A stretch of DNA of 64,000 nt from an uncultured bacterium (GCA_964562805.1 CAZLUT010000001.1:32574-96573); one strand, 5' to 3'. Shown: positions 5,361 through 42,386, numbered from the stretch's first letter. The notes: a model not told the origin generated them from the sequence alone. Numbers and translations are program-made.

Positions 5361-8300
5361 ATGAGGTTTTTATCAAACAATAAAGCGAGCCGTGCGCTCA
5401 CTATCTATTTTCTTATTTTTTGTTTTCTAGCTACATCAAACGCTGTAGCCAACCCGGCTTTTATTCAAGAGGAAACAATTTCCCCCAAAAAACAAACAAC
5501 AAAGGAAGAATTTTTAAGTGAGCTTAAATTAGTTGAATCGGATTTAACACAAAGCAGAAAAAGAGGCGAAAAAGATATTTTAATTTCTGGATTGGTTGAA
5601 CGCTCGCGAAAAATTGTTGGTGCAAAGGCCGCTAGCCTTGGTGAGGTGACGCCTCCTGAAGAGATTCCGCTGCTACATCCCGCCAACCTAGAAGAAATAA
5701 AAGAGCGACTTGAAAAAGAGCTGGAAGGTTATTTGAAACCAACTTTTTCTATCGCGCCGGATATTCCAGAAACCATATGGCTAGGCCTGTACTCAGGACA
5801 TCTTAGAGCCGTTCTTAATGAATTGCTTAAGAATTCCCGGGAGGCAGGCGCCACGCAAGTAAATTTAAATTTTCAGATGATTGACGGCAAGCTTATCATC
5901 AAAGCCCAAGATAATGGCGAAGGAGTGTCTTATGAATCTTTAAAAAAAGCTTTGCTTAAGGCCGCCCAGGAAGAACGGGTTATTAGAAACGAAGATGGAA
6001 TTCTTGAAGTTCCTTTTCCCCGTATTGCGGATGCAAAGCAAATCTTAACCACGGAAGAAGTTTTGGAGTTTATTAAGGAAAATGAAAAGCTGCTTCCTTT
6101 TATCTCGGGCCTTTCCGTAAAAGGAAGTTTTCGTGGCATGGGCATCGCTGCGAGTTGGCAGATTATTAAGCGTCATGGCGGAACAATGGATTATACGACA
6201 GGTCCCGAAGGAACAACTTTTACCATCCAATCACCGGTTTCGGTTAAAGCCAAGAGCCTTGGGAGTGATTTTGTTATAGATTCAGGAAGATCGTATTCGT
6301 TTAAGGATGTTGAGATCGAACAAAGGCAATATCCGGTCTCTTCTCCCGCATCTGTTGTTTTTCCAACGGTCATATTAGAAATTAATAATAGAGCCTACGA
6401 AGTTGGTGGCGAGAATTTTCTAGTTATCACGCTTGCCAACGGAAAAAAGATTTATTGGGGTGGGCAGCACAACCTTTCTTATTCTTTCTTTTTTGAAAAT
6501 TTTAAAGAAAAGGCCGCTGAGCTTATTGAAGCCGGCGGTGTCCTTTGGTTTCATATTGATAATCATGTTGATCTTGGTTCGTACGAAGAGGCAAATAGAC
6601 GTAGTTTAGACACAGGTGTTTGGCAAAAAGAAATTGAGCATGGATATGCCCATCTTAGTTTTGCCAATTACATGGGTTATCTTTTACAGACTAAGGTGGT
6701 TTCTGATTTGCACCGAGCCAGTTCACTCGAAGAGATTGTTGAAGGAAAATGGGCCATCGATTCTCCTTCGGTTGTAGATTTTGATGTCGATGTAATTTTG
6801 GATAATACAGGGAAAACCCGCCTTGGTCTTTTGGAGAAGGCAAAGCTCTTATCAATTTTTAATCAAGCAGATGTTGTTTTTATGACCAATAGTTCGGAGC
6901 TGAGCGCATTTAATCTGGGTGTGCCTTTACATATTGATCCACATCTAGCCATTTCAACTAATGCGAAATTTATACAAGAACTTGCACTCCAATCTAGCTT
7001 GGTGGCAGGTAAGAGTTTGGGAAAAGAGGAAAAGAAAGAAATTTCTTTTAGTGAGATTAATTGGAATCCATTTCGAAAATATGGTGATTGGGCTGGTTTC
7101 TTCCGGGGGCGAACTATTAATCAAGAGCTAGATGATATACAAGAAAAAGCCATGGCGCACCTCACGATGATGTATGAAACGGCTCTCAAAGAAGCAAAGT
7201 CTTTCGAGATGGAGGAGTTGCTTGAAGTGGCAAAAGATTCTGCTCGAGCAAAGATTGAAGGAATGATAGCTGTCCGGCGAGAGGGGGCCCTGGAAAATCG
7301 GCTGATGGACTTTGTCTTAAGACTTAATGGTTCGGGTGTTACTTTACAAACAAGAGAATTAGTTAAAAATTATCTCAAAGATTTTTGGGATAAGGCATCA
7401 GGGGTTTTGAGTGGCCGCGAGGTTTTTGAGCTAGAGGCTCAAAATGCGATTAGGAAAGCGTCTCGTCTCAAAGTGTTTCGTCCTATCCGAACTATATTGG
7501 TTGCTGAAGATGAGGAAGTTTATTTAAAAGATTACAAGAAGGTATTTGAGCGGCTTGGGAGAGACGATATCGATGTGCTTTATTTTCCAACCAGAAAAAA
7601 AGCAATAACTCATTTAAAAACTTTTGGCAAAGAGGTGGATCTTATCTTCGCAGACCGCTCGATGGTAGATGAAGAGGAATATAAGGAAAGATTGGTAGCT
7701 GGTCTTCCTGCTGATGTGGATGATGGCGGGCTTCTTATTGAAGAAGTTAGGAATAAATTAAACCTAAAAACCCCTGTAGTTTTTGTGAGCGGGTCAAGAT
7801 ATGGCCAAAACGAACTAGATCAATTTGGAAATGCAACTCAATTTTCTAAAGCATATCTGAATCCAGAACATTTGGGACGACTCGTTCAGGAATTGATTAA
7901 AATTCTGCCCGAAATTCCTGAGCCTCCTGATGTCGAAGGACTTATGTCCGCTGATAAGATCAAAACGCATAATGATTATTTGCTAGACCTTTTATCTTTT
8001 CTTGGCTCCTTGGACCGCTCTGAAATAACTACAAAAATTAATGAAAATTTGTCACCAGCATCATGGCAGGCATGGGTAGCGCATGATTTTAAAACCCCAA
8101 TTGGCGTAATTCTGCAGAATGTGCAATTAATTGAAGATTACAAGAAAAGCGATGAAGCTGTACCAATTAAAAATATTAAAAGAATCATAGAAAATTATCA
8201 GAAAATAAAGGATGCGCTGACTGTTATAGACCGGGCGGGTGAACCTATTCGCCCTGAATATTTTGATCGGCTAACTCATACTGGTAGCAAGAAAGATCCT

Positions 8301-19500: not shown

Positions 19501-22500
19501 ATTCTCAAACCTATCCGTGCCCGGCGGCAAGAGTCTTATTAATTTGCTGAAGCAATTTGGAATTTATGAGGATGCTGATACCGGCATTCAGGTGAATGAC
19601 CTTCGCGTGAATGAAATTGTTACTAATGATGAAAAAATCAATCAAATTATCCGTAAAGAAGGCGAGTTTGCTTCCCGTGCGAAGAGCTTGGGAGAAGAAA
19701 CAAAAATTTTCGAAGATTGGCTGGAAATGTGGAGCGAGATTTATGAAAGAAAATTAACTATTAATTTTAAACCGCCTGAATTTGAAGAATCTGGATTTCT
19801 TACTTTAGAAAATAGGCTTGGTAAGATGGCCGCAGAAATTCAGTATCGTTATTCAGTTAGAGACCCGGTGGCTGGCGATCTAATAACAATAATTGATCAA
19901 AGCACAGCAACAGATTACCAGAGAAAGAGAATCATGACTTTGATGCATTTATTTTTATTAGATTATTACCCCAAAGTTCGAACTGTTGAATTTGATGGAC
20001 TTTCTGATCATGGTGAAAGTCTTGCGGAAACATTAAAGCAATTTGGAATTTATTATCCTATTGGCGATAAATTTCAAGTGGTTGGGCGTCGTTTGGATGA
20101 AATCGTTGCTTTTAACGAAAATATCAAACAAATCATCGCGAAAGAAGGTGAATTTGTTTCGCGCGGAAAAAGTTTGGGTAGAGGAATGGAGTTTGTCGAT
20201 CCTAAGTACCTCACCTTGAGCCCAGAATTAAGAAGAACAAAAGATTTTAATTTTAAACTTTTAAATGAATTATCTGAGACAGAGAGAGAAGAATTGATAC
20301 AGCTTATCATGGGATTTCTGGAGGTCAAAGGTAAGATCGGCAGAATAAAAGCCATGCGGCGATTAAGTAAATTTAAGGCCCCACGCTCCTTTGAGGTCGT
20401 GGCCTTCAAGAACAATGAAGCAGTTGGTTATACCAACGCTTATTTTACGGATCAAATTTTTATTCCTAGAGAAGTATATATTACTGATATTTATGTTAAA
20501 GAGGGCGAGGCTTATCGTAGACACCGTATTGGTACAAATCTTTTTAATATTACCAAAGAGCATGCAAGAAACATTGGAGCTCAGGAGCTTATAGTTAGCG
20601 GCATTAGACAAAAATCAGAAGCCCAAGATTTTTGGAAGAAAATAGCTGAACAAAATCCGGATACTAACATCCAATATTATGGGCCTTTAAAGAAGATTTC
20701 TCGGATCGGATTGGATTTAACAAGAAACCTCCCCTCGATACCGGATGCTGAAGGATTGCCGGCTTTTGAGAAAATCGGAGCTTATGTGAACTTTGTCATG
20801 AAATTAGTGTCTGCTATTGGGAAAATTGATCAGAAGCTAACTCTTTATTTTGAAGCGAGCCCCAAGCCGCTTCCCGAGGCATGGGTGGATTGGGCAGGAC
20901 ATACTGTAAAAGAAGATTTGAGCTCTGTAGCTACCTGGCATGATGGGTTTGATACCTTATATTCGGCCGCTGCAAGGAAGAAGGAATTTAAAGAAGATCC
21001 CCGTATTCTTAATTACGTAGACAAATATATTGATTCTTTTAAAAGTTATTTTGCCCCAATCAAGAGGCTAGCTAGGGGGCATCCTTCTGATTATACGGCT
21101 GGCCTTACAAAGAAGGGTGATGAGACAGAGCCGGTTGATCGCACGCAATTGGCACGCTATTTCGCAAGAGATCTTTTTATTAATCATCCTGATGCCGAAA
21201 GCAACTGGCAGTTTTTTCAAGCCGCGGTCAGCAGCGTTGATGAAACTCTCGTCAAATTAAAATCCGCAATCAAAGAACTTGAGGAGGAGGTAGGGGCAAG
21301 AAGCTTGGGCGAAGAGGGAGTTTTGTTTCCTTCCAAAGATTTTTCAAAATACGGGATATCCGAAACTGATTCACGTTTTAACGCTATGATGCGGCCGCAG
21401 CAGATCGCCTTTTTCATGCTAATGAAACGGATGCTTAATCTTCCACCGAGAAGCATGGGCATCTATGAAGCGTCTTTTTCTGATATTTCATCTTTGTTGC
21501 TTGCGACTAATTTAGATAATGTCATCATGGTGGACAGCACTTCTTTTCACGACCCATCAAAACGACCTGATTTTTGGAGAGATAAAAAAGATGGTTTTTT
21601 ATCAAATAAGAAAATTTTCGGCTTTCTCCCAACAGAATTTTTAAAACAATATGGTGTCTATGAGGACGTAGAGCATCCTCTTATGTGGGAACTTAGTGCT
21701 ATTGGAGCAACTAATATTCGCGTTAAAAAGTATCTTAATTATAAAAACGCGTATGTGATTAACTTTTATTGGGCATATCACAATGAGGCCCCTCGCCCTC
21801 GCAAGATAATATTTTTTGAAAATACAAATACTGCGGAAGAATCTAAAAATAGGGACCTTTTATATAAGTTTTATGGCTACTATAAGGATAAAGTGAAGGT
21901 AGCTTTTTACAGAAATTCAGAAGCAATCGCGACTTCATTTCCGTTAACAGAAGCTAAAGCGCACTTTCAAAAATTGCGAGAGATATTCCCTGGCAACACT
22001 TTATTTGTGTCTAACTTTGATTTTGCCTCTTATTACGACGGCTACAAAAACAATAATCTTTTTATGGGACCAACCCCAAGGGAAAACCTGACTTCCGTTC
22101 GAGGCTTTTTAAAAGAGTTTGATGTGCAATATGGTCTGGACCCTGAGAGGGACCCTGAAGAGCTGTATATCAGCACACCGCGTTTAATAGTTGGCCAAAG
22201 CCTTGGAGAAGAGGAGATAGTTCAGCGAGTAATGTCTAATATCGGAGAATCCGAAGAGCCTTTTTACGGCATGCTTCCCGCGTCACTTCTTGAGGAATTG
22301 GCTGAAAGCGAAGGTAAGGACGTTCTAAAACAGCAGATGGAATATTTGATCGGAAACAAGGCGAATCATATTGTTATTCTGTGGGATACAGATATTCCGC
22401 GCTTTGAAAGAAATGAGTGGCTGGATAAATTGGGACTTGGTGCGCTTGGTAGCAAAAAGAATTTTATCACAACTCCTCTAAAAGCAAAGATAGATGAAAA

Positions 22501-22813
22501 GGCGCTTCAGGATCAAATAAAAGAAACTCTAAAAATATTGCTTTCAAGAGGCGTTGAAACTCGTGCAATTGGGCTGCTAAAACCATTTGATGAGCAATTT
22601 AAAGTTGATGCCCATTCATTAAAATCCAAATCACCGCAAGCGCTTCTTCTCCTGCATTACTTAGTGCAGATTGACGGTGATCTTGCGCAAGATCTGTTAA
22701 GAATCTTTTCGATTGATCCCAAGACAGGGGATTATCTGGCAGAACTCTCGAATCATCTCGAACGCCTCTTCCAAGAAGCCCGCGCTGCAGAAGCGGTGCG
22801 TAAAGCAGCGTAG
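13583..22813 (+). CDS. Giant secreted multi-module protein 2 (3076 aa), a mosaic paralogue of protein 1. Contains a receiver-like domain, a GNAT domain, two internal tandem duplications, twelve KSLG-type linkers and a conserved C-terminal module
   Basis: - The ATG overlaps the upstream stop (TAATG at 13581-13585).
- Signal peptide ...LIFCFLTTTIAVASP.
- REC-like domain 17690-18040.
- GNAT motif YRRHRIGTNLF around 20500.
- The C-terminal approximately 200 aa align with the C-terminus of protein 1 (…LHYL[IV]QIDGDL[SA]QDLLRIF…DPKTGD[FY][IL]AEL). Confidence 0.8.
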   Translation: MLSVVSKYKTFLAFIIYPLIFCFLTTTIAVASPISQIKTDTISAEKQTQERDFLEEIRQVAEELAESKEREEEIVSIGEIVEKVRGSEDQRIKAMRKEAIDRTRKVLEVTGKSWVAPSLPAVAGTEHRELSVTGKSLGRTKRHALISQAARDMPSFMKDRAKMVQRLYESIDSEEAKRILLRPDVLPVFLGIKSAYLTYDRDPLIGPLSEKVSEASEEFHDLGLVFSERYVISIDYLFDRFEKEGDFLVKEKIISKDELESFIKSGPTQETMNSIDGLLDQYHGDVPGRTILHGFLMGYPLREIIFAARSEKTWEGFVSEYGLHVVSPGTERINRLLSGWDIGTHFGYLTLSNEPDFEEMMEPSALRVFKTIEGKSLGTDEILVKLKSARRINENAREYGEMTYQEAIEVMKSLPDGLWRVEDKGELLNIFNVILATLDKAEETIFEAGGASLFYIHCTSRLEEVLGRLPQEDREAKRLELLDLVNTYINPVGEISQKAAALIKAVEGSTDRYPSSFDEPDASYDELLPKLISLVKSIHPNEDSRLDPYNIKIKALETIDAIVHSGFISDFREIIKFLLAELKKIDDPRNIRTSLVEAIAGVLISILYKQNNLKYEYGGIDQATNVNWALRRTLGAEGGRGTISLFEAFGSFGDVNKIVKRLSQNFEKATTQKQKEKALKAAVKEIDAYGEFLQNEYEISRVLDLLEFGFDKKLSKDQKLNKALHKISNVKSFREALKDLLDSVTLPDKLSNLGTGLFKVLSSIIQDFTEKALLTDDSKELKTILRNTIQKMEEYQNFLAAKVAREEGLEEEAEGKKRAPPEEEIFRAEAKSMGAAYLMVAIKSEPALAIKENFEIVLEEIHDASPRSAREALEAIPFFIKANPKLATKEVLKNILNRLFLGYWDDEPLKPDSSVYLITPNIFILRSFYAADRKLFNNELFEIVKKSADDSNKDAVDMALPFFASNMFGIDIDFETLRPLELAISEIFALIGKEVFVSEESTKHLESILISLSEQLAVTEDEVERGKIILDTFNKMLELQEFMKLQKARARGTLRAEDEKKEVSEDEIFRETPSLSAEAGAMRPAPRVTGKSLGAAYLIDAIKSEPSLAVEANFKKVLKEIQNPEHKEARKALRAIPFFIKANPKLATKKALRNILMKLFWGYWFYGKPSAVDQPIYLVKPNLYVLRSFYEADRKLFDDELYEIVKKIAHDTQRDIEDVVAAVLPFFISSMFGIDIDFETFKHLERAISQTLEILGNEVFVSEESTRHLRSIIISFSEQLAAIEDEAEQEQIVLDTFGKVLELQDFLKAKKERAKGLELGVEGKERTPPEDEIFREAPRAEAKSLGMEDEIIKVIQEALHVKIERHIRTKLIAEDDEDIQKIYKRAFEQLARDDITVLYFPHRRAAINYLRDYGDEVDLIFADRAMDDRDEIDERIKERLPLDIDDGTLLVKQARSRLNLNIPVIFISSTIYNQDELDQFGNATQLPKQYLDATTLEHLIQKLIQILPELPEPPSVEELTPAERMQAHIQYLRELFEFLGPLKKSTIKVIKKKALQSTTWYSWLSHGFQNELLSIEISMRRARARKERGQTISSDTLRNLKESYEKMERSFVIVDRLTRPYRPEYLAMLTETGSEASPIPHPKLPLYFSKAVFEDHPNEANNRKIFQATAPIIDSTLKKLGEAVDEYVREAGGAPGVTAASLGGIADIISPEEAAPLRMELEEGLIDDKARLNYPIQQILLHQDIQQKNKEIAWLIKVRADHFPILSQHVDELIRFVNDNPDWMPSNGLELLIFRLFAGHSYSDLNRESLAAFDEALPPVVRLLRNFDIKNLVKRGVTTDREIYPLKVSSYFINDASEIRKLGKTAQDIIKRAEAKSLGEETQIFEDWLKAWGDVYGEKLAINFEPAPLGGLGFFGLKDEAGEKVAGIFYSYLNENLIKIGLQSTADNYRRKRLMTLVHLFLLNYHPKVTAVEFSNLSVPGGKSLINLLKQFGIYEDADTGIQVNDLRVNEIVTNDEKINQIIRKEGEFASRAKSLGEETKIFEDWLEMWSEIYERKLTINFKPPEFEESGFLTLENRLGKMAAEIQYRYSVRDPVAGDLITIIDQSTATDYQRKRIMTLMHLFLLDYYPKVRTVEFDGLSDHGESLAETLKQFGIYYPIGDKFQVVGRRLDEIVAFNENIKQIIAKEGEFVSRGKSLGRGMEFVDPKYLTLSPELRRTKDFNFKLLNELSETEREELIQLIMGFLEVKGKIGRIKAMRRLSKFKAPRSFEVVAFKNNEAVGYTNAYFTDQIFIPREVYITDIYVKEGEAYRRHRIGTNLFNITKEHARNIGAQELIVSGIRQKSEAQDFWKKIAEQNPDTNIQYYGPLKKISRIGLDLTRNLPSIPDAEGLPAFEKIGAYVNFVMKLVSAIGKIDQKLTLYFEASPKPLPEAWVDWAGHTVKEDLSSVATWHDGFDTLYSAAARKKEFKEDPRILNYVDKYIDSFKSYFAPIKRLARGHPSDYTAGLTKKGDETEPVDRTQLARYFARDLFINHPDAESNWQFFQAAVSSVDETLVKLKSAIKELEEEVGARSLGEEGVLFPSKDFSKYGISETDSRFNAMMRPQQIAFFMLMKRMLNLPPRSMGIYEASFSDISSLLLATNLDNVIMVDSTSFHDPSKRPDFWRDKKDGFLSNKKIFGFLPTEFLKQYGVYEDVEHPLMWELSAIGATNIRVKKYLNYKNAYVINFYWAYHNEAPRPRKIIFFENTNTAEESKNRDLLYKFYGYYKDKVKVAFYRNSEAIATSFPLTEAKAHFQKLREIFPGNTLFVSNFDFASYYDGYKNNNLFMGPTPRENLTSVRGFLKEFDVQYGLDPERDPEELYISTPRLIVGQSLGEEEIVQRVMSNIGESEEPFYGMLPASLLEELAESEGKDVLKQQMEYLIGNKANHIVILWDTDIPRFERNEWLDKLGLGALGSKKNFITTPLKAKIDEKALQDQIKETLKILLSRGVETRAIGLLKPFDEQFKVDAHSLKSKSPQALLLLHYLVQIDGDLAQDLLRIFSIDPKTGDYLAELSNHLERLFQEARAAEAVRKAA
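16064..17620 (+). repeat. Intragenic tandem duplication in giant gene 2 (two units of about 780 nt, each about 260 aa; roughly 65-70% aa identity by eye)
   Basis: Unit 1 at 16064-16843 (AEAKSMGAAYLMVAIKSEPALA...IPFFIKANPKLATK...FGIDIDFET...) parallels unit 2 at 16844-17620 (VTGKSLGAAYLIDAIKSEPSLA...IPFFIKANPKLATK...FGIDIDFET...). Confidence 0.8.
19199..20164 (+). repeat. Second intragenic tandem duplication in giant gene 2 (two units of about 160 aa)
   Basis: 19199-19678 (AEAKSLGEETQIFEDWLKAW...YRRKRLMTLVHLFLLNYHPKV...LKQFGIY...) parallels 19679-20164 (RAKSLGEETKIFEDWLEMW...YQRKRIMTLMHLFLLDYYPKV...LKQFGIY...). Confidence 0.8.
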
Positions 22814-37314: not shown

Positions 37315-37977
37315 ATGAAACATTTCCATCAAATCATTTTATTAGTTTTAGTAAGTTTACTTCTAATTCCGCAAATTGCCGGAGCCAAAGAATCGACACC
37401 GGGTGACGCACCTGAGCTTGTTATTGCTGATTTTGATTCGGGAAAAAAACCCAATAATGTTGGCGGTGACTTTGGATCTTGGAATTACGCTCCTCGGGAT
37501 GAAACTCAAGGATGTTGGGACTGGTTTGAACCTACCAATTTCAATGACGTTGAAGGCTATAGCGTGATTATGGAGTATGACGTTAAATCTCCTAATCCCG
37601 CGTTTTGCGGTTTATGGATGAAGCTTAAAAATGTAGATGTTTCACCCTATGATGTTTTAAGCCTGTGGCTTAAAGGCGACGAAAAAACAGGATTTACAAC
37701 GCGTTTCAAGATAGAAATGAGAAATAAACGCGGGAAACGTGCCGTTTATACCGTTAGCGGAGTTGATAATACCTGGCAGAATTTCAAAATTCCTTTTAAG
37801 AAAACTCGGGCTATTAATGATTGGAGTCAGATACAAGAAATGACTGTTGTATTTGATGATATTATGGCGACTAAAAAAGTGGGGCAGATTCTTTTAGATC
37901 AAATTAGTTTCAGGAAATATACCCCCGAAGAATTAAAGGCCCAAAAAGAAGCGCTAGCCAAGAACGCTGCCGCATAA
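37315..37977 (+). CDS. Secreted protein, function unknown; paralogous module shared with the next gene
   Basis: Signal peptide; the C-terminal block WQNFKIPFK...DWSQIQEMTVVFDD...ILLDQISF recurs in 37978-39984. Confidence 0.45.
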   Translation: MKHFHQIILLVLVSLLLIPQIAGAKESTPGDAPELVIADFDSGKKPNNVGGDFGSWNYAPRDETQGCWDWFEPTNFNDVEGYSVIMEYDVKSPNPAFCGLWMKLKNVDVSPYDVLSLWLKGDEKTGFTTRFKIEMRNKRGKRAVYTVSGVDNTWQNFKIPFKKTRAINDWSQIQEMTVVFDDIMATKKVGQILLDQISFRKYTPEELKAQKEALAKNAAA

Positions 37978-39984
37978 ATGAAACTTAAGGTTCTCGCTGT
38001 CAGCCTTTTGGCTGTAGCGAATTTAGTTTTTCTCTCAAGTGATATCGAGGCCGGCCAAGCGCCTCAAAAACTTAAAGAGACGCGTTACCAGCCGAGAGTT
38101 TTAAAACAGCCGACGCATCAAAACCGGGTTCTTCTCGTCGACAATTTTAATTATCCCAATATGATGAATTTGCTCGGAGGAGAAACCCAGGGCGATGAAG
38201 AAGAGCCGGGCGGACTCATTCCTTCCTACACACCCAGTGGCCGTTTAACGATGGGGGAAGCCGGACATTCTCTAAAAATGGATTACAACGTGGCGATACC
38301 CATGGCTATTGCCTATTATTGGACACGTCTTGGCCCTGTGGATTCGGAGGTTGTGGGAGCAACTTTTCCGATTGATCTAGAAGGTTTCAACTATCTTTCT
38401 TTTTGGATAAAAACCGACCGAGAATATCCTCGTTTTGCCATCGAATTTCACCAGGATGTCAATAATGACCATATCTTCACTCTTGGAAAGGATACCAATA
38501 ATAAGATTGCTGTTTCCAGCTTTATTCTCTCGCCGGCCGAAAAAATCGCGGGAGGCGCTGCTGAAGTTATCGTTGATGTTAAGGATAAAAGAATTTTAGT
38601 TGAGAGTCGTAAAAAGAAGAAACCTAAAGTTGAAGAAGAGCTAAAACCGCAAGAGGAGGAGAAGGAAGAAGATGTTATTGAGACAGCGTCATTGAGCGAA
38701 ACGCCCGATGAGGCGGGAGAAATGATAGAGGTAATGTCTCCGCCAATTCTTCCAGGAGGAGAGGTTCTAAAAGAAGAAAAAACACAAACCACAGAGCGCA
38801 AAACACAAGAAGTAGCTGCAAAAGAACCGGAGATTCAAGAAGTTAAAGAGCTGGAGGAGAAGAAGGAAGAAACTGCGAAAGAGGCAGAGCCGGAGAAAAT
38901 GGAAGAGAAGCAAGAAAAAGCAGACGCCGAGCCAAAAAAAGAAGAAAAGCCGGAAGATATAAGCGGCAAGGTTAAAGAAGAAGAGAAAACGGTTGAAGCG
39001 ATGAAGAGACAAAAACCTAGCTCATTGTTGCGGCTGAAGAAATATAAGCGACGCTCCAGAAAAAGAGTCACTTTCTTTCACACCGAAGGTCCGGCTACTT
39101 CGCCCGAAAAGGAAGTTAGCAGAAGGGAACTTGAAGTATCCAGACGAAAAGCGCCCAAAAAGAGAGCGGTGGAGATTGAAGTAGGCAGCACGGTTGTTTC
39201 GAGGGCTGTTGTTACAACTGTTTTGGGAAAAGGAACTTCAATTCAGGCGCCTACTCAAATTAGAGCTATGCGTAAAAAAGATTTGTCCTGGCGAAAAGTA
39301 GTGGTGCCTTTAAGCCGATTTCGCGGCATTACGGATTGGTCCAAAATTTTAGAAATGATTTTTCTTTTTAGTGATCAATTAGCTTCTGATCAGGGCATTA
39401 TCTATGTTGACGATATTCTTTTTGGAACGAACTATATGCATCCGAAACCTGAAAAAGTACGTGCACCAAAAATAGAATTTTTAAAATTTGCTAAACTCAA
39501 GGAAAACATTTCTCCCGCGGTTATACGGGGCATTCAGATGGCAAGCCGTAAGGAGGAAAACCAGGCTGTCCACAAAGTATCCGAGGAAGCTCTCATGGCG
39601 CGGGATGTGAGCGGAGATCTCCTTAAAGCTCAACTTAATTCAAGAGAGAAAATAATAAACTTTTTTAAAACAGAAGACGCTGAGAATTTTATTGATGGAG
39701 CGCGTCTCCCCAACACTTTTTTGCTCTATTTTAAGACAAGTGTTACTGACCCCACCTTAGAAACAATTCGTGTTGAAACAAGCCAGGACGAGGGGGTAAC
39801 GTGGAGTATTATTTCAAACCTTTATTCTCACCAAGAGGATGGGGTCTATATCTTTCCGTGGAGGCTTCCATCAACCGGGGCGGGTGAATCAATCTTATTT
39901 CGCTTAAATGCCGCTGATATTTGGGGGAGGGCGGCTGTTATGGGAGAACCTATTAAGTTTCAAGTTGGAGGTGCCAGTGAGTAG
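37978..39984 (+). CDS. Secreted protein with two beta-sandwich-like modules flanking a highly charged E/K-rich low-complexity region
   Basis: Start overlaps the upstream stop (TAAATG); signal peptide; E/K-rich segment about 38600-39180; module DWSKILEMIFLFSDQ...IYVDDILFG. Confidence 0.45.
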   Translation: MKLKVLAVSLLAVANLVFLSSDIEAGQAPQKLKETRYQPRVLKQPTHQNRVLLVDNFNYPNMMNLLGGETQGDEEEPGGLIPSYTPSGRLTMGEAGHSLKMDYNVAIPMAIAYYWTRLGPVDSEVVGATFPIDLEGFNYLSFWIKTDREYPRFAIEFHQDVNNDHIFTLGKDTNNKIAVSSFILSPAEKIAGGAAEVIVDVKDKRILVESRKKKKPKVEEELKPQEEEKEEDVIETASLSETPDEAGEMIEVMSPPILPGGEVLKEEKTQTTERKTQEVAAKEPEIQEVKELEEKKEETAKEAEPEKMEEKQEKADAEPKKEEKPEDISGKVKEEEKTVEAMKRQKPSSLLRLKKYKRRSRKRVTFFHTEGPATSPEKEVSRRELEVSRRKAPKKRAVEIEVGSTVVSRAVVTTVLGKGTSIQAPTQIRAMRKKDLSWRKVVVPLSRFRGITDWSKILEMIFLFSDQLASDQGIIYVDDILFGTNYMHPKPEKVRAPKIEFLKFAKLKENISPAVIRGIQMASRKEENQAVHKVSEEALMARDVSGDLLKAQLNSREKIINFFKTEDAENFIDGARLPNTFLLYFKTSVTDPTLETIRVETSQDEGVTWSIISNLYSHQEDGVYIFPWRLPSTGAGESILFRLNAADIWGRAAVMGEPIKFQVGGASE

Positions 39985-41834: not shown

Positions 41835-42386
41835 ATGAATTTAGTTCCTAAAAAAATTTTTCTGACAAAAGGTGTCGGAATTGACCGGCACAAGCTTAAT
41901 AGCCTTGAGCTGGCACTTCGCCACGCGCAAATCGCCTGTTATAACATTGTGCGGGTTTCGAGCATTTTACCCCCTCATTGTAATCGGGTTACTCTTGGTA
42001 AAGGACTCAAGTATTTGAAGCCGGGGCAGATCGTTTTTGCGGTCATGGCTGAGTCATCCACAAACGAACCAAACCGTTTGGTAGCAGCCAGCGTAGGGGT
42101 CGCAATACCCGCCAACCGCAGTCAATATGGCTACCTTTCAGAACATCATTCATCCGGTCAAACGCAAGGAAAAGCTGGGGATTATGCCGAAGATATGGCA
42201 GCGGGCATGCTTGCTACGACGCTGGGCGTAAAATTTGATCCCGAGGCCAGTTATGACGAAAAAAAAGAAATTTGGAAAATTAGCGATTCAATCGTCAGAA
42301 CATCGGAAATGACCCAGTCAGCCGAAGGAAATAAAAATGGTCTTTGGACTACTGTTGTTGCCGCCGCCGTTTTTTGCGACTACTAG
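41835..42386 (+). CDS. pdaD: Pyruvoyl-dependent arginine decarboxylase
   Basis: Size about 180 aa; VSSILPP self-cleavage site (Ser-Ser) in the conserved position; overall PvlArgDC-like sequence. Confidence 0.65.
   Translation: MNLVPKKIFLTKGVGIDRHKLNSLELALRHAQIACYNIVRVSSILPPHCNRVTLGKGLKYLKPGQIVFAVMAESSTNEPNRLVAASVGVAIPANRSQYGYLSEHHSSGQTQGKAGDYAEDMAAGMLATTLGVKFDPEASYDEKKEIWKISDSIVRTSEMTQSAEGNKNGLWTTVVAAAVFCDY

Follow-up and report, generated by a model that had tools for sequence, protein, structure and literature searches.

Omnitrophota, which have been proposed to be predators or parasites (PMC10066038), encode long and giant multi-enzyme proteins, in which many distinct enzyme Pfams are tiled along one ORF together with a signal peptide, membrane segments or both. 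Conservation among these proteins is poor and few of their domains are annotated; in one class, a signal peptide at the N-terminus is the sole membrane segment. Whether these giants act as single chains or as cut pieces is an explicitly open question. West-Roberts et al. suspected that they are cleaved, without information on the cleavage points (bioRxiv 10.1101/2023.11.21.568195). Here we analyse two tandem genes, encoding proteins 1 and 2, in a 64,000-nucleotide stretch of DNA from an uncultured bacterium (GCA_964562805.1 CAZLUT010000001.1:32574-96573; the whole stretch is called the window, and positions are counted from its first letter). Both proteins belong to the long multi-enzyme class of Omnitrophota. 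Their domain mix (methyltransferase, HATPase_c, GNAT, receiver and HEAT content) and their signal-peptide-only topology have already been published as 'Pfam Module 1' and the signal-peptide-only class (bioRxiv 10.64898/2026.06.07.730766). However, they are shorter than the published giants, at 2.7-3.1 k aa versus at least 10 to 147 k aa (the 2026 preprint used a cut-off of at least 10 k aa). Both chains are divided into modules by a short recurrent peptide motif. We propose that they are exported polyproteins in which this motif is a processing site, a reading to which we assign a probability of roughly 0.45.

The closest mechanistic precedent for such processing is provided by MARTX and the large clostridial toxins. 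These are likewise large secreted strings of unrelated enzymatic domains, and their internal InsP6-activated cysteine protease domains cut at small-Leu-small sites, with Leu at P1, in unstructured segments between the effectors (PMC2900308). The S-L-G of the motif described here fits small-Leu-small and lies in linkers with a low predicted local distance difference test score (pLDDT), its cleavage being a prediction. In contrast to the toxins, proteins 1 and 2 have no Peptidase_C80-type domain (Pfam, E<=1), RTX repeats or type I signal, and carry a putative Sec signal instead. Their motif is also longer and far more regular, and their producers are not known to cause disease in eukaryotes. Polyproteins of viruses (picornavirus, potyvirus, coronavirus replicase) resemble proteins 1 and 2 in being one long product of unrelated functional units with short recurrent sites that differ between lineages, and in containing some short spacer peptides. 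Unlike these, the present genes are cellular and chromosomal, and lie among housekeeping genes, no protease module was found in the chain, and the product would be exported.

In the two papers on Omnitrophota giant proteins, which describe domain content and topology, a term search found no junction motif, conserved C-terminal module or cleavage map; the words 'motif', 'processing' and 'proteolytic' are absent from the 2026 preprint (bioRxiv 10.64898/2026.06.07.730766). A full-text literature search for Omnitrophota and polyprotein returned no description of such punctuation, and a literature search of limited extent found none of the punctuation, the C-terminal module ending in ...AA, or the module families introduced below as m2, Hx and m6/m10.

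Junction motif and export signals

Proteins 1 and 2 are encoded by tandem open reading frames (ORFs) on the + strand. The stop codon of the first and the start codon of the second share the sequence TAATG, and this overlap suggests translational coupling.

5361..13583, + strand: protein 1, 2,740 aa counted from ATG; the ORF opens at TTG 5355
5361..5450, + strand: signal-peptide-like N-terminus of protein 1, MRFLSNNKASR / ALTIYFLIFCFLATS / NAVA, then NP; read from sequence
13583..22813, + strand: protein 2, 3,076 aa
13583..13675, + strand: signal-peptide-like N-terminus of protein 2, ...IFCFLTTTIAVA, then SP

An assembly chimera was ruled out for protein 1. An identical protein (P0001) occurs on two metagenome contigs from independent sources (JGI 3300009008 and ENA ERZ23498639), and the ORF is therefore not an assembly artefact.

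The junction motif has the consensus [VI]-x-[G/A]-K-S-L-G-[E] and splits each protein into about 11 modules. The pattern [GA][KRAQ]S[LM]G matches 22 times in the two proteins, whereas shuffled sequences averaged 0.09 matches and never exceeded 2 (5,000 shuffles). Ser is present at all 22 junctions and Gly is invariant, Leu is found at 21 and Lys at 18, and the residues that follow are usually acidic. Elsewhere in the six frames of the window, and in its other ORFs, even the looser pattern [KRA]S[LM]G is seldom matched.

5628..5642, + strand: junction 1 of protein 1, AAASLG variant
6249..6263, + strand: junction AKSLG of protein 1; pLDDT below 50 in the m2 model
7008..7022, + strand: junction GKSLG of protein 1; pLDDT below 50
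8463..8477, + strand: junction AKSLG of protein 1
9246..9260, + strand: junction GKSLG of protein 1
10002..10016, + strand: junction GKSLG of protein 1
10695..10709, + strand: junction GKSLG of protein 1
10779..10793, + strand: junction GKSLG of protein 1
11367..11381, + strand: junction GKSLG of protein 1
12222..12236, + strand: junction GKSLG of protein 1
12951..12965, + strand: junction AKSLG of protein 1; lies in the low-pLDDT tail of the m10 model
13982..22207, + strand: overall span of the eleven junctions of protein 2, whose 15-nt motifs start at 13982, 14702, 16070, 16850, 17606, 18677, 19205, 19679, 20165, 21296 and 22193
10710..10793, + strand: module m7, a 28-residue peptide of protein 1 bracketed by two junctions

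Homology between proteins 1 and 2 spans whole modules from end to end, and the order of the modules is permuted. The m5 family, for example, occupies the fifth place in protein 1 and the second in protein 2, and the unit formed by the receiver-like domain and the Hx module is third in protein 1 and sixth in protein 2. All three junction copies included in AlphaFold2 models are of low confidence, with confident module cores: residues 1-15 and 264-281 of the m2 model have a pLDDT below 50, and the m10 tail is at about 47. The view of the sequence-only reading, an earlier motif-based annotation of this DNA, that modules are set between junction motifs was thus borne out by the excess of matches and the low-pLDDT linkers. 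Taken together, proteins 1 and 2 are very probably signal-peptide-bearing chains of about 11 independently folding modules each, joined by motif-bearing linkers.

Junctions are spaced 158-485 residues apart, with m7 as the exception. Its counterpart in protein 2 (aa 89-113, 13847-13921) is 76% identical, and the conserved 25-28 residues (...AMRQEAIDRTRKVLEITGKSLG) may represent a released peptide or a spacer. Protein 2 also contains recent internal tandem duplications (m4/m5, 57% identical, 16085-17620; m8/m9, 52%, 19220-20179), in which each copy retains its own junction.

The Ser, Leu and Gly codons at the junctions differ freely (AGT/AGC/TCG for Ser; TTG/CTT/TTA/CTC for Leu), so selection acts on the junction peptide and not on a DNA word. 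This bears on an origin of the motif at the nucleic-acid level, either as a recombination scar left by cassette shuffling or as internal TTG/ATG translation starts. Such an origin would agree with the permutation of module order exactly at the junctions, with the Met or Leu found in many lineage motifs (PDM, RAM, GAMH, SEM, SLG) and with TTG being the commonest Leu codon. However, synonymous codons vary at every position, and translation could not start at 8 of the 21 Leu codons (CTT, CTC or TTA); on these grounds internal starts and a DNA-level recombination word were rejected. Promoter-like sites inside the genes are not enriched either (28 versus 35.8 expected), and the junction sequences, as read, show no conserved Shine-Dalgarno sequence upstream of the motif. 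We consider a nucleic-acid-level motif highly improbable.

Both N-termini consist of a basic n-region, a 15-residue hydrophobic core and an AVA|N or AVA|S site. In a hydropathy scan this is the sole hydrophobic segment of protein 1, and protein 2 has one additional weak segment, located inside a module. The two proteins contain only three Cys in 5,816 residues, two of which fall within the signal peptides; in its mature form, protein 1 would have no Cys and protein 2 a single one. Against the 0.99% Cys of the other ORFs in the window, the binomial probability of this depletion is 2e-21. Extreme Cys depletion is typical of exported chains. From the N-terminal signals and the Cys depletion, proteins 1 and 2 are predicted to be Sec-exported unfolded chains, and the secretion suggested by the sequence-only reading is plausible. 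Some relatives are similarly poor in Cys (P0013, 0 in 1,554 residues; P0022, 2 in 3,731), and other giants are not depleted. The signal peptides of protein 1, L001, L019, P0002 and P0026 share a hydrophobic core followed by A-N-P-[D/E/A] (AVA|NP, VWA|NPD, VLA|NPE, TYA|NPD), which may be a lineage-specific sorting feature.

Related loci and the proposed processing of the chain

Relatives of these proteins are scarce. The C-terminal 1,188 residues of protein 1 match just 29 proteins among 1.84 billion representatives, and all named relatives are Omnitrophota. Species-representative genomes contain 13 loci, in metagenome-assembled genomes labelled Omnitrophota/Omnitrophica or 'uncultured Planctomycetia/Planctomycetales'. 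A scan of metagenomes with module m2 added four loci only, and a metagenome scan with the C-terminal module found no relatives.

Module m2 is the sole module shared with other Omnitrophota giants at BLAST level. It always lies within a giant ORF, and the motif that flanks it on both sides is the one particular to the lineage: KPFAPDM in P0002, L001 and P0006, SSPA or SSPV in L003, L006 and L010, RSEMR in L002 and L012, and GSSxxV in L005 and L008. In the m6/m10 family, a local motif (KSLG, ASMG, TGAMH or DSAMM, depending on the lineage) follows 8-10 residues past the last strand, a structural position that does not change from lineage to lineage. Further recurrent motifs are SSSP[VAL], which occurs 19 times in L010, [KR]DGG, 13 times in P0024, and DRAM[LM] in P0022, TGAMH in P0018 and D[SE]AM[VM] in P0015.

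No conserved neighbour was found across the related loci; the neighbouring genes differ, and the idea of a conserved protease gene next to the giants was rejected for this reason. Within the clade of L005, L008, L016 and L017, one and the same 412-aa ORF, absent from the window, invariably lies downstream of the giant gene. By eye, its N-terminus (YPELVAPAGDW...AGADAVYFG) has the look of the U32 peptidase family.

The permuted order, the low-pLDDT junctions and the occurrence of one family as a stand-alone secreted gene support the view that the modules are separate units. We propose that the chain would be exported by Sec and that the junction motif would then be read in trans by a lineage-specific endopeptidase. 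Cleavage in the flexible linkers would free the modules as separate proteins, making the chain a bacterial polyprotein. The set of modules comprises a GHKL ATPase, a ureohydrolase-like metallohydrolase, receiver-like domains, a PrmA/PRMT-like methyltransferase, a GNAT domain, HEAT-like repeats and several families without known relatives. Because some of these enzymes need ATP, S-adenosylmethionine (SAM) or acetyl-CoA, the units concerned would depend on a place that supplies these cofactors, the likeliest being the interior or surface of a host or prey cell. Action of the released units on a host is a doubtful part of the proposal, albeit one that agrees with the predatory or parasitic lifestyle proposed for Omnitrophota. 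Tentatively, the reading may be extended to Omnitrophota giants in general, which would then be polyproteins with lineage-specific punctuation (KSLG, KPFAPDM, SSSP[VAL], [KR]DGG, TGAMH, DRAML and others) and a co-evolving protease reading each motif.

Several points weigh against processing at the junctions. Proteins 1 and 2 have no Pfam match to a peptidase at E<=1, no HExxH and no GDSG, and no peptidase was seen among the neighbours in the window. A cysteine protease acting in cis is excluded for protein 1, since the mature chain lacks Cys. The composition of the junction flanks is only mildly linker-like (z 1.7 and -2.4), and several related giants (L007, L009 and P0008) show no obvious recurrent motif. 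The signal peptides were assigned by eye, and the Omnitrophota-type origin of the window is deduced solely from the names of homologues. Processing itself is a prediction from sequence and models. The junction might possibly be a modification site instead, given that GKSLG fits the GxSxG pattern and that its xSL resembles a carrier-protein site. The GxSxG pattern is that of nucleophile elbows, and the junctions here lie in low-confidence linkers, outside such folds. The xSL sequence is found at the phosphopantetheine sites of carrier proteins.

A modified Ser would suit chains that stay intact as surface or periplasmic 'beads on a string', the linker being a hinge, a docking site or a site of phosphorylation, glycosylation or phosphopantetheine-like modification. 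Ser is the only fully invariant polar residue of the motif, a protease was found neither in the proteins nor shared among the related loci, and in the 2026 preprint each such protein is regarded as one polypeptide that is secreted or anchored (bioRxiv 10.64898/2026.06.07.730766). The combination of an N-terminal signal with a conserved C-terminal module also suggests that the whole chain is handled as one unit. However, the motifs KPFAPDM, [KR]DGG and DRAML of other lineages contain no Ser, so Ser modification is not a general rule. A hinge needs no sequence conservation, yet from one lineage to another all copies of the motif change together. The very short peptides between junctions (28 and 23 residues here; 15-35 in L010) would make poor tethered domains, and one module family is known, at the gene level, as a free secreted protein. 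On balance we regard intact chains as rather unlikely and favour the exported polyprotein.

Units between the junctions

All peptides quoted in the sequence-only reading are present at their places in the + strand ORFs. Two of its seven domain calls, the H-box and the GNAT-like unit of protein 1, are unsupported, as described below with the modules concerned. The first three modules and their relatives are:

5643..6263, + strand: module m1, GHKL ATPase with N-box ELLKN, G1 DNGEG and G2 GMGIA; ELLKNSREA at 5820-5846, DNGEGV at 5910-5927 and GMGIAASWQIIKRHGG at 6135-6182
6264..7022, + strand: module m2, 'ANGKKIYW', probable ureohydrolase-like metallohydrolase (H..DxHxD..DxDxD)
7023..8477, + strand: module m3, consisting of a helical N-terminal part, a receiver-like domain and a helical 'Hx' module, in this order
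7485..7859, + strand: receiver-like domain of protein 1 with the AED, FAD, VSGS and SK positions; IFADRSM at 7644-7664
17681..18040, + strand: receiver-like domain of protein 2, sharing 54% identity with the copy in protein 1; IFADRAM at 17840-17860
7887..8477, + strand: 'Hx' module, copy 1, carrying AHDFKTPIG at 8079-8105
10794..11381, + strand: module m8, 'Hx' copy 2, alone between junctions

The GHKL ATPase recognised in the sequence-only reading was confirmed, with intact N, G1 and G2 boxes. HATPase_c matches aa 149-295 of protein 1 with 31.7 bits, above the curated Pfam cut-off of 26.4. The best relatives of m1 in a profile search of the PDB are N-terminal domains of MutL and histidine kinases, down to 7e-5, and in the alignment with MutL the E, N, D and G occupy the catalytic positions. 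The N-box ELLKN with the Glu of MutL points to a hydrolysing ATPase of the GHL type rather than a kinase.

The receiver-like domain is less clear. Its set of an acidic pair, acceptor Asp, Ser and Lys is conserved in both paralogues, and hhalign relates the unit to canonical receivers of related giants with an E-value of 4.8e-5 and a probability of 68%. Pfam Response_reg matches protein 2 only (E 0.029, 15 bits versus a cut-off of 30.2) and leaves protein 1 unmatched, so that the cut-off is missed in both proteins, and a profile search of the PDB with the receiver unit gave chance-level matches only. The receiver assignment thus has moderate support.

The supposed H-box belongs to Hx, a recurrent module of about 190 residues that is present in two copies each in proteins 1 and 2 and in five other giants. 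Its conserved positions are W..W..H and (D/N)HPxAExN..FQ. Where copy 1 has AHDFKTPIG, the other three copies have SHGFQNELL, VHTVLSYMS and GHTVKEDLS, retaining just the His of an H-box. A HisKA match in Pfam reaches only E 0.079 (13.5 bits versus a cut-off of 26.9), a profile search of the PDB with Hx gave chance-level matches only, and comparison with the DHp and CA domains of a histidine kinase encoded in the same window gave an hhalign probability of 0.3%. On the strength of the latter, Hx was rejected as HisKA.

Hence the arrangement differs from that of two-component and hybrid histidine kinases, which also combine HATPase_c-superfamily and receiver-like domains on one polypeptide. Here, HisKA/DHp is lacking, the N-box is MutL-like and the chain is predicted to be exported. 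The receiver follows the ATPase at a distance of 550 residues, and an unrelated hydrolase occupies the interval. The His-bearing module lies about 600 residues downstream of the ATPase, whereas in a sensor histidine kinase the HisKA/DHp dimerisation domain, with its phospho-acceptor H-box, directly precedes the ATPase. The earlier conclusion that the modules do not form one ordered two-component protein holds: they are separate folding units, and their order differs between proteins 1 and 2.

The same domains could nevertheless be imagined as a signalling hub of the cell itself, in which an uncleaved N-terminal anchor would keep the modules in the cytoplasm and a scrambled ATPase-Hx-receiver phosphorelay would regulate the methyltransferase and acetyltransferase. 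A GHKL module, two receiver-like domains with intact acceptors and four Hx copies with an invariant His would be available for this purpose. ATP, SAM and acetyl-CoA are cytoplasmic, and the 2026 preprint places the methyltransferase/HATPase_c/GNAT group largely in anchored proteins that face the cytoplasm. Against this, the positive n-region and AxA site predict an N-in, C-out topology and cleavage, and the Cys depletion has the extent expected of exported chains. Hx is unrelated to HisKA, the Glu in the N-box follows MutL-type ATPases and not the kinase pattern, and the junction motif would be left unexplained. We therefore consider a signalling hub quite improbable; in proteins of this kind, the presence of an ATPase, a receiver and a His motif should not be taken as a two-component system.

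Module m2 had gone unnoticed in the sequence-only reading. In 15 sequences, H83, N84, D113-x-H115-x-D117, D186-x-D188-x-D190 and N-S-S-E are invariant or nearly so. The His and Asp residues follow the ligand pattern of binuclear ureohydrolases. An AlphaFold model based on six sequences has a pLDDT of 69 and a predicted template modelling score (pTM) of 0.75, and its top Foldseek match in the PDB, formiminoglutamase 1xfk, is weak (E 5e-3, probability 0.95, 240 columns, TM 0.35). In Pfam, six m2 sequences had no match up to an E-value of 10, Arginase included, and the profile search of the PDB remained at chance level. From the ligand pattern and the weak fold match, m2 is a probable ureohydrolase-like metallohydrolase. 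Its H, DxHxD and DxDxD pattern resembles that of the superfamily of arginase, agmatinase and formiminoglutamase, from which it differs by an extra N-terminal beta-rich part and the conserved NSSE and ANGKKIYW, which are not known from arginases. A role of m2 as the site-specific protease was rejected: no other module is as conserved, although each lineage has its own motif, and the ligand pattern of m2 is ureohydrolase-like. A gene for a pyruvoyl-dependent arginine decarboxylase lies 19 kb downstream (41835-42386); it is mentioned solely because m2 looks ureohydrolase-like.

The remaining modules are:

8478..9260, + strand: module m4, class I SAM methyltransferase, PrmA/PRMT-like; VLDAGAGDS at 8787-8813
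9261..10016, + strand: module m5, unknown family; its paralogue is aa 139-378 of protein 2
10017..10709, + strand: module m6, paralogue of m10 with 28% identity
11382..12236, + strand: module m9, orphan, with two small beta-rich repeats, a K/P-rich stretch and a helical tail
11814..11918, + strand: K/P-rich low-complexity stretch with 16 K, 2 R and 6 P per 35 residues
12237..12965, + strand: module m10, the 'GNAT-like' unit of the sequence-only reading, a separate family; GIGVQLLKLVTEAL at 12546-12587
12966..13580, + strand: module m11, conserved C-terminal module, ending in ...ARAA
20372..20638, + strand: GNAT acetyltransferase domain of protein 2; YRRHRIGTNLF at 20513-20545
22202..22810, + strand: C-terminal module of protein 2, ending in ...VRKAA

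Module m4 is a SAM methyltransferase, as had been read from its motif I. It matches PrmA in NCBIfam (9e-10) and PRMT3 in the PDB (7.7e-7; PRMT3/8/1 at about 1e-6), and scores slightly below the cut-off for Pfam Methyltransf_31 (24.5 versus 27 bits). Both motif I (VLDAGAGDS) and the acidic residue that ends beta2 (VIEIE) are present. PRMTs are marked by a double-E loop (SEWMGY) and a THW loop. Neither loop was found in m4, which has DIVLASLNSNG in place of SEWMGY; the match comprises the Rossmann core only.

The two acetyltransferase assignments fared differently. In protein 2, Acetyltransf_1 matches with 37 bits (Pfam cut-off 20.7), and H-R-I-G-T-N is a variant of motif A, Q/R-x-x-G-x-G/A, which corroborates a GNAT domain. 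In protein 1, the unit at about 12550 that had been called GNAT-like is m10, whose model is confident (pLDDT 92.2, pTM 0.86). Foldseek searches of the PDB and of viral structures with this model gave no match at E<=0.001. The best match to an acetyltransferase is Rtt109 (Foldseek, E 0.13, TM 0.19), Pfam gives no match, the hhalign probability against the GNAT of protein 2 is 0.08%, and profile searches of the PDB with m6/m10 yielded chance-level matches only. The order of secondary structures near QxxGxQ bears a faint likeness to GNAT, and the non-significant matches include Rtt109 and a NAT_SF protein; a very remote relationship between m10 and GNAT is thus conceivable, though unsupported.

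For the m6/m10 family, 16 sequences were collected. One comes from a complete gene that stands alone inside a 40-kb contig and encodes 306 aa, a signal peptide of its own included (L020 3001-3921; NCBI GCA_043809745.1, contig JBDROU010000010.1). It adjoins a stand-alone gene for a 214-aa methyltransferase, and the same kinds of unit thus occur as separate genes.

In protein 2, weak HEAT-, RPN7- and exportin-like matches are limited to module m3, which precedes m4/m5. Module m9 has no homologues among the 1.84 billion representatives. Its K/P-rich stretch is present, as the sequence-only reading had it, and is of low complexity, whereas a specific meaning as a histone-like or nuclear-localisation sequence is unsupported: the stretch has no homologues, and a longer spacer of this type is found in another ORF. 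Since that secreted ORF (37978-39984) has a K/E/P-rich low-complexity spacer of about 230 residues, we treat the K/P stretch as a putative charged linker.

The C-terminal module of about 200 residues is always the last unit, has xSLG directly before it and ends in A-[R/K/Q]-A-A (10 relatives). It has no match in Pfam or the PDB, where a profile search stayed at chance level. Ends of the A[RKQ]AA type are reminiscent of ssrA-like tags and of the ligands that tail-specific/PDZ proteases bind. Other giants have a C-terminal module of a second type, which likewise ends in small residues (SA, AA, FA).

Genomic setting and implications

The neighbours of the two genes in the window are ordinary chromosomal genes, among them those for an ABC transporter, RlmN, YchF, MlaE, isocitrate dehydrogenase, malate dehydrogenase, PurH and MnmE. 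A bona fide PAS histidine kinase is encoded at 56515-58626. The GC content of the window is even, at about 0.40, and no tRNA or Rfam RNA families were found in it. Two more signal-peptide-bearing ORFs without a Pfam match lie at 37315-39984, one of them ending in ...KNAAA and the other bearing the K/E/P-rich spacer described above.

The lineage-specific linker motifs supply candidate cut sites for the question of single chain or cut pieces, and these can be checked in existing metaproteomes as neo-termini at ...SLG. Computational splitting of giants at these motifs also yields units of a size that structure prediction can handle. The analysis exposes module families without known relatives, one of them (m10) with a confident model that matches no solved structure. 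If the punctuation proves general, the motifs would be the first cleavage map for Omnitrophota giants, and the modules, at least three of whose families lack known relatives, would constitute a secreted effector repertoire of nanobacterial predators or parasites.

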